A DNA stretch of 64,000 nt from Escherichia coli (lineage in GTDB: Bacteria > Pseudomonadota > Gammaproteobacteria > Enterobacterales > Enterobacteriaceae), in the NCBI RefSeq assembly GCF_016026235.1, contig NZ_CP065613.1; one strand, given 5' to 3'. The notes beneath the pieces were generated by a model. The model did not search any database and had not been told where the DNA came from. It worked only from the letters and a program-made list of their open reading frames with translations. Both the position numbers and the translations under genes were made by a program. Positions within the stretch are counted from its first letter, which is position 1, and each line of letters starts with the position of its first letter. Positions 48,269 to 64,000 of this stretch are shown here, piece by piece.

Positions 48269-48288
48269 AACTGAGATTTTATACAGTA
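48269..48288. promoter_or_regulatory. LexA box upstream of yebG
   Basis: aaCTGagattttataCAGta fits CTG-N10-CAG consensus 18 bp upstream of the yebG start. Confidence 0.6.
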
Positions 48289-61703: not shown

Positions 61704-61722
61704 TCTGTCGCTGAACACATTT

Positions 61723-62865
<1,143 letters not shown>

Positions 62866-62870
62866 TTACC

Positions 62871-63482
62871 TCATAACGCGGCGCGTAGGGCTTCGCGAAT
62901 TAATGTTTCACTGCTGGCGTCAGGGCGAGCGATTTTGCTCACCATGCGGCTTGCTTCTTGTGGTTTATAGCCCAGCGCCACCAGCGCGGCAACCGCTTCT
63001 TGTTCAGCATCGTCGGTCGCCGGGCTGGCAGGAGACGTGAGTACCAGGTCGGCGGCTGGCGTAAAGAGATCGCCATGCAAACCTTTAAATCGGTCTTTCA
63101 TTTCCACAATCAAGCGTTCGGCGGTTTTTTTGCCAATACCCGGCAGTTTCACCAGTGCCCCCACTTCTTCACGCTCAACGGCATTAACGAACTGCTGCGC
63201 TGACATTCCGGAGAGGATCGCCAGCGCCAACTTCGGGCCGACGCCGTTGGTTTTGATCAACTCTTTGAACAATGTGCGCTCTTGTTTATTGTTAAAACCG
63301 TACAGCAGTTGCGCGTCTTCACGCACCACAAAGTGGGTGAAAACGATCGCTTCCTGACCCGCTTCAGGGAGTTCATAAAAACAGGTCATCGGCATATGCA
63401 CTTCATAGCCTACGCCGCCCACTTCAATTAACACCAGCGGGGGTTGTTTTTCAATGATGATGCCTCTGAGTCTGCCTATCAC
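62871..63482 (-). CDS. ruvA: Holliday junction DNA helicase subunit RuvA
   Basis: 203-aa ORF recognised as RuvA. Confidence 0.95.
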
Positions 63483-63531
63483 ATGACGCTCCTGCGTAAT
63501 GAATCAAAGATAATGCTGTATGATAAAAAAA

Positions 63532-63551
63532 TGCTGGATAGATATCCAGCG
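63532..63551. promoter_or_regulatory. LexA box upstream of ruvAB
   Basis: tgCTGgatagatatcCAGcg fits CTG-N10-CAG about 50 bp upstream of ruvA. Confidence 0.65.
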
Positions 63552-63756
63552 AAGGATGAAGAAAACTTGCGAGGTGTCTCGATGAACTGAAAAATGGCAC
63601 AGTATAATTTATTCTACAGGTTATATTGGAAGCAAATATTTTAATATTACATATTCAGTGAAGAAATGCGTAATAAAAATATACATTGCGCCTCCTGAAA
63701 AAATAAATTTTTTATGCTATTACGTATATTCGTATCTATTTCAATGGAATGACAAC

Positions 63757-64000
63757 GTGAATATTAATTACCCTGCTGAATATGAAATTGGAGATATCGT
63801 CTTTACATGTATAGGTGCTGCCTTATTTGGTCAAATATCAGCTGCATCAAATTGCTGGAGTAATCACGTCGGGATCATTATCGGTCATAACGGTGAAGAC
63901 TTCCTGGTTGCAGAAAGCCGGGTTCCCCTTTCAACCATCACCACGCTATCTCGTTTTATTAAACGTTCGTCTAATCAACGCTATGCTATAAAGCGATTAG
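63757..64000 (+). CDS. yebB: DUF830 protein YebB, N-terminal part; 3' end lies beyond window
   Basis: Open frame from GTG at 63757 to window end, translating [49 protein letters not shown]...; not in the track because no stop is reached. Confidence 0.6.

Follow-up and report, generated by a model that had tools for sequence, protein, structure and literature searches.

The ruvAB LexA operator in an Escherichia coli genome and the terminator-like form of its palindrome

The palindrome at positions 63532 to 63551 of the window (the whole stretch of 64,000 nucleotides of Escherichia coli DNA that was analysed) is almost certainly the long-known LexA operator of ruvAB, carried here by another E. 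coli strain. A preliminary description of this DNA had placed an SOS box upstream of ruvA at these coordinates. Both the coordinates and the letters, TGCTGGATAGATATCCAGCG on the plus strand, proved exact, and the box does lie before ruvA, which is encoded on the minus strand, 49 nt ahead of its GTG start codon. The identity of the operator is already known and the finding, correct as it is, is ordinary: ruvAB is a textbook SOS operon, the site is its published operator, and as a LexA box it offers nothing new. The modest new point lies in the comparison across genera, which suggests how one palindrome can hold a promoter, a terminator and the site of a repressor together. The operator, the promoter and the genes around them are laid out as follows.

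63532..63551, minus strand: LexA operator (SOS box) of ruvAB, CGCTGGATATCTATCCAGCA on the ruvA strand, equal to the published box; leave-one-out heterology index 8.52
63543..63548, minus strand: -35 hexamer TGGATA of the ruvAB promoter, inside the LexA box (promoter scan; SELEX; same hexamer in Salmonella)
63520..63525, minus strand: -10 hexamer TATCAT of the ruvAB promoter, after a 17-nt spacer (promoter scan; SELEX; same hexamer in Salmonella)
63525..63531, minus strand: T7 run 3' of the palindrome, filling most of the promoter spacer (read from the sequence)
63489..63493, minus strand: Shine-Dalgarno AGGAG of ruvA, 6 nt before the GTG (sequence; conserved alignment block)
62871..63482, minus strand: ruvA coding sequence, 203 aa, GTG start at 63482 (TIGR00084, E=4e-66; RefSeq annotation)
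61852..62862, minus strand: ruvB coding sequence, 336 aa, second gene of the operon (NF000868, E=2e-162; RefSeq annotation)
63621..63686, minus strand: yobI, gene of a 21-aa small protein, between yebB and the box (RefSeq annotation mapped to the window)
63757, plus strand: start of yebB

The CTG-N10-CAG core of the box occupies 63534..63549 (CTGGATATCTATCCAG, with the centre ATATCTAT). The box is self-complementary at 8 of 10 positions, which makes it the imperfect 20-bp palindrome with an A+T-rich centre that is looked for in a LexA operator. A comparison with the published ruvAB operator had been proposed in the preliminary description, and it gave complete agreement: the reverse complement of the box together with five flanking bases, TTCGCTGGATATCTATCCAGCATTT, is what Table 4 of PMC3009722, on LexA motifs, gives for ruvA, letter for letter over the 25-mer. 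The 20-mer, the flanks and the position before ruvA are all those of the K-12 ruvAB SOS box (PMC3009722), with no difference between the two. Since the whole ruvA-yebB intergenic region equals that of K-12 MG1655 save for one base outside the box (63731), data obtained in K-12 apply to the box described here (the MG1655 coordinate is the window coordinate + 1,882,494). That the window is E. coli chromosome is borne out by a 701-nt query around the site, which found matches in 5,425 of the 5,426 complete genomes of the species. A stretch of 71 nt surrounding the box is unchanged in 4,837 of the 5,174 E. coli genomes that match it. The ruvAB SOS box is said to have been described with the ruv operon itself, by Shinagawa et al. 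and by Benson et al. in 1988, and LexA binding to it has presumably been reported. The nearest likeness among other boxes is that of cho (ydjQ), CACTGGATAGATAACCAGCA, which matches the plus-strand reading of the ruvA box (TGCTGGATAGATATCCAGCG) at 16 of 20 positions, the unusual CTGG start of the half-site included. The cho box differs in being less symmetric (6 complementary pairs vs 8) and in forming a weaker hairpin. As the ruvA box had been matched to the base by a reader working without tools, it can serve as a positive control for the scan.

The box carries six mismatches to the consensus TACTG(TA)5CAGTA, among them a G in place of T as the fourth base in both half-sites, and a search of the window for the 20-mer consensus with up to three mismatches gave no match. 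Because of these six mismatches a matrix was needed. We used a heterology index (HI) matrix in the Berg-von Hippel/Lewis form, built from 17 E. coli LexA sites of PMC3009722 Table 4, with ruvA left out. On the ruvA strand, the leave-one-out HI of the box is 8.52, ranking second among the ~128,000 positions of the window. This lies within the spread of accepted sites under the same matrix (polB 8.3, dinB 8.5, ftsK 8.8, dinG 9.6), and the published HI of the box is 7.6 (values of Courcelle 2001 quoted in PMC11228462). Functional LexA sites have an HI below about 12-15, a threshold of ~15 being quoted in the literature, and the ruvA box falls on the functional side of these limits. The preliminary description had suggested a LexA matrix scan as a check and had named a poor score as evidence against the box; the scan returned the 8.52 given above, which is no poor score.

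One could still argue that a CTG-N10-CAG arose by luck in an A+T-rich intergenic region. Bare cores are indeed not discriminating, as 27 of them are found in the window against 12.9 expected, and a second one stands 52 bp upstream of the box. The score of the full 20-mer argues otherwise: the exact probability of an HI of 8.53 or lower is 5.6e-7 per position, so that one expects 0.07 sites at such a score in a whole window; for the 274-bp intergenic region the figure is 3e-4 to 2e-3. Shuffles of the whole window reached the score in 14 of 300 cases when dinucleotides were preserved and in 21 of 500 when mononucleotides were, and shuffles of the intergenic region did so in 14 of 20,000. One of the 300 dinucleotide shuffles gave a site of HI 1.98, expected ~1.5e-5 times per shuffle; this result is unexplained, and the conclusion stands, given that the remaining shuffles match the exact calculation. 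The second core also speaks against luck as the source of the ruvA box, in that it scores HI 15-16.5 and is unconserved, whereas the ruvA box is invariant in its half-sites across 78 loci (see below). A chance match has in our view next to no probability, and it is already refuted by conservation and score.

The second core was itself considered as an operator and rejected. It lies at 63587..63602 and reads TACTGTGCCATTTTTCAGTT on the ruvA strand, with good outer arms and a G+C-containing centre. With the score given above and no conservation in other genera, it is probably not an operator.

To place the box in its family, one genome per species was scanned, which yielded 80 ruvA loci from ~20 genera of Enterobacteriaceae at a RuvA identity of at least 90%, 78 of them with usable upstream sequence. 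In every one of these 78, the top match to the LexA matrix over the 400 nt upstream was the orthologous CTGGAT-N4-ATCCAG, the conservation at an orthologous position that is looked for in a LexA operator. The distance from box to ruvA start is 47-52 nt in 76 loci and 175 nt in the two others, Pseudenterobacter timonensis (L041) and Enterobacter sp. RIT418 (L078), where an insertion of ~125 nt between promoter and ruvA is implied. When 79 upstream regions were aligned, conservation in the 300 nt before ruvA was confined to the half-sites, the T-run with the -10, and the ribosome-binding site, and the central four bases of the box were found to vary (ATCT, AAAT, AAAC, ATTT, ATGT, GTTT, ATTC). 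The T7 run is kept in nearly all 78 loci, those with a stem of only 6 bp included, and the -10 pattern TATNAT in nearly all loci. No conservation of the yobI open reading frame or of the second CTG-N10-CAG was seen in the upstream-region alignment.

The position of the box relative to the promoter fits repression. A genomic SELEX peak of the sigma-70 holoenzyme lies in the ruvA-yobI spacer, and TGGATA-17-TATCAT was assigned to it by the authors (PMC3946193). The geometry of this promoter would put the start of ruvAB transcription near 63513 and the box at about -38 to -19 of that start. The promoter overlap sought in a LexA operator is present in that the box contains the -35 TGGATA, with the start position taken from promoter geometry. 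A LexA dimer would sit on the CTGGAT and ATCCAG half-sites, covering the -35 hexamer and keeping sigma-70 RNA polymerase off, most likely by steric occlusion. After DNA damage, RecA on single-stranded DNA would lead LexA to cleave itself and the site to empty, and transcription of ruvAB would then rise about two- to threefold.

Published expression data agree with such a scheme. In RNA-seq experiments with AZT, ruvA was up 2.0x and ruvB 2.8x, with a lexA-cleavage dependence of 1.9x and 2.6x, and the induction of ruvAB was lost in lexA3. With ciprofloxacin the log2 fold change of ruvA/ruvB was about 1.0-1.6, and a review lists ruvAB among the LexA-regulated genes. The SOS regulation of ruvAB, with which the preliminary description had found the box consistent, is supported by the published lexA-dependent induction, by the promoter overlap and by the conservation of the half-sites at 78 loci. 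In Salmonella treated with nalidixic acid, ruvA was not among the upregulated genes, and operator strength may vary between genera. Also counted against an operator were the weak (~twofold) induction, the six consensus mismatches, and a palindromic symmetry that a hairpin would show just as well. Such modest induction is in keeping with a box of medium strength on a promoter with appreciable basal activity. With very high confidence, then, we read the site as a LexA operator from its identity to the known operator, its matrix score, the promoter overlap and the cross-genus conservation; the LexA-dependent induction is taken from the literature.

Three aspects of the site were absent from the preliminary description, namely the minus strand of ruvA, the presence of yobI just upstream on the same strand, and the terminator form of the palindrome with its T-run. 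On the ruvA strand a terminator scan called GCTGGATATCTATCCAGC with ATTTTTTTAT as an intrinsic terminator:

63533..63550, minus strand: hairpin GCUGGAU-AUCU-AUCCAGC, 7-bp stem with 4 G:C pairs, followed by A and U7 (terminator scan; -9.1 kcal/mol)

This hairpin forms in the minimum-free-energy fold computed for the RNA 3' of yobI; in E. coli it follows the yobI stop codon by 70 nt, on the same strand. Of the features of an intrinsic terminator, a G+C-containing stem-loop leading straight into a U-run and a same-strand gene upstream are present. Of 18 published E. coli LexA boxes, that of ruvA forms the most stable hairpin, by a slight difference (-10.6 vs -9.4 kcal/mol for polB). The likeness to intrinsic (Rho-independent) terminators extends to the G+C-containing stem, the 4-nt loop and the U-run just after a same-strand gene; unlike ordinary ones, the stem of the ruvA box carries a -35 and a repressor operator, and its U-run is a promoter spacer.

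These features, together with the six mismatches to the LexA consensus and the weak induction, might be taken to mean that the palindrome is only a terminator or a structural repeat, its resemblance to a LexA box being fortuitous and the induction of ruvAB indirect. We consider this very improbable. The expression of ruvAB depends on lexA cleavage in published data, the box sits on the promoter -35, and its matrix score is far beyond chance for the location. Moreover, genomes with decayed stem flanks and a divergent gene upstream (L036) still keep the half-sites and the exact CTG-N10-CAG spacing unchanged.

A second possibility is that the palindrome has a dual use, acting as DNA in the LexA operator and the -35, and acting as RNA, together with the T-run, in a terminator for upstream transcripts of the same strand. 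The transcripts ended there would be those of yebC-ruvC in most Enterobacteriaceae and that of yobI in E. coli, which would leave ruvAB to LexA control alone, and the box of E. coli would be what is left of such an element after partial relaxation, its flanks having shifted in the direction of the LexA consensus. We regard this proposal as plausible while leaning somewhat against it. In E. coli it is favored by the call of the terminator scan, by the presence of the hairpin in the minimum-free-energy fold, by its rank among the LexA boxes, and by yobI, a gene with its own promoter whose end lies 70 nt upstream on the same strand. Against it, the stem in E. coli has only 7 bp and -9.1 kcal/mol, and the E. 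coli Term-seq supplements (Adams 2021) hold no ruvA or yobI 3' end among the entries listed, yobI being maybe poorly expressed. A literature search on ruvC, ruvA, terminator and LexA found no description of a terminator/operator overlap.

The comparison of loci bears on the same question. In 53 of the 78 usable loci the gene immediately upstream of ruvA, on the same strand, is ruvC, and 49 pass a strict adjacency criterion (adjacency was decided by tblastn; a classifier based on the orientation of open reading frames was discounted, as it was misled by antisense ones). In other loci genes are inserted between ruvC and ruvA: Escherichia has yebB and yobI there, and elsewhere it is yebB or different genes. 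At the 49 adjacent loci the stem is 9-14 bp long, GGCTGGAT..ATCCAGCC, in most cases lengthened by A:U or G:U pairing and followed by the T-run, with energies mostly of -14 to -15 and down to -18.6 kcal/mol. The single exception, with GG..CA flanks and a 7-bp stem, is L023. In 41 of the 49 the ruvC stop codon is followed by the stem after 8-9 nt (range 1-11 nt). At loci with inserted genes the outer pairs have decayed to CG..CA, AT..CC, AT..CT or AT..CA, and the stems have 6-8 bp and -5.7 to -12.4 kcal/mol. GG..CC flanks are found at 48 of the 49 ruvC-adjacent loci vs 14 of the 29 others, an association that is uncorrected for shared ancestry and is weakened by this as evidence for termination. 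The GG..CC flanks depart from the TA..TA of the LexA consensus in the direction that strengthens the stem: they raise the HI to about 10-11, and the CG..CA of Escherichia lowers it to 8.5, which agrees with the lack of ruvA among the nalidixic acid-induced genes of Salmonella. In Salmonella, the ruvC-ruvA spacer of ~80 nt consists of the stop codon, ~10 nt, the hairpin, T7, the -10 and the leader, and it holds no other candidate terminator.

Two further observations count against termination as the force that shaped the palindrome. At L016 a same-strand gene lies close upstream and yet the stem is weak, and the T7 run persists in loci left with a stem of 6 bp (-5.7 kcal/mol). Because T7 is kept with 6-bp stems, the T-run is constrained by something besides termination, such as a role as promoter spacer or LexA flank. 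In our reading, promoter and operator function preserves the inner half-sites, the T-run and the -10 at every locus, and the outer stem is under constraint only where a same-strand gene needs terminating. Since an extended G+C-rich stem with a T-run begins 8-9 nt past the ruvC stop in most of these loci, we infer that the palindrome probably doubles as the ruvC terminator in genera where ruvC abuts ruvA.

The layout of these genera has a parallel in the ruvCAB locus of Vibrionaceae (Sanchez-Alberola et al. 2012, PMC3323433), in which a LexA site and a presumed secondary promoter lie between ruvC and ruvA and ruvAB is SOS-regulated independently of ruvC. Most of the Enterobacteriaceae loci compared here share the order ruvC, box, ruvA; E. 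coli differs by having yebB and yobI before the box. The likeness rests on the published description, and no terminator role is described in that paper.

These observations can be joined in a model that we put forward tentatively, at a little short of an even chance. A module of ~30 bp between ruvC and ruvA would have three roles, as terminator of yebC-ruvC in the RNA, as the -35 with the spacer in the ruvAB promoter, and as LexA operator, and the E. coli box would be a derived, LexA-optimised copy. It would have been cut off from ruvC by the insertion of yebB/yobI and would have lost its outer stem pairs, while its flanks came closer to the LexA consensus, with the HI going from about 11 to 8.5. 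The three roles taken together are likelier for the ruvC-adjacent genera than this overall estimate, and termination of yobI in E. coli is less likely than it. If the model holds, it could account for the clear SOS induction of ruvAB in E. coli as against Salmonella, in which no induction was detected. It also suggests that stem stability and LexA affinity are competing constraints, whose balance shifts once a gene insertion ends the need for termination. The locus would then be a testable example of the evolution of a regulatory site; it does not answer a long-standing question.

Some observations concern the neighborhood of the box. For yobI, a promoter of its own has been assigned by SELEX, and the one intergenic base that differs from MG1655, 63731, falls in the -10 of the yobI promoter of Shimada et al., which reads TACAAA in K-12 and TACGAA in the window. 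This change might lower the transcription of yobI in the strain from which the window comes. The yobI gene was detected only in Escherichia loci (L003 and L011, at 81% and 62% identity) and was absent from the other genera compared, in which the ruvA box is abutted by ruvC or other genes, and yebB was found in 13 of the 80 loci compared. A search of 63300..64000 against Rfam gave no match. At the other end of the operon, between the convergent znuB and ruvB (~61720..61860), lie three REP-like imperfect palindromes, e.g. GTCGGATGCGGCGCGAGCGCCTTATCCGACCTAC, and it is because of them that a spurious open reading frame of 179 aa appears at 61728..62267.

The best LexA-matrix hit in the window is a box of the yebG type, TACTGTATAAAATCTCAGTT, at 48269..48288 on the minus strand, 17 nt upstream of yebG, a gene whose site belongs to the training set of the matrix. 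It differs from the K-12 yebG box, TACTGTATAAAATCACAGTT, by an A->T change at position 15, and its HI is 6.7 vs 3.6 for the K-12 version (own matrix). Only 4 of the 5,419 complete E. coli genomes that match here carry the same 71 nt around this box, and in the next-best genome the difference falls precisely on the position-15 base. In Salmonella, a polymorphism of the yebG box has been reported to alter the ON subpopulation.
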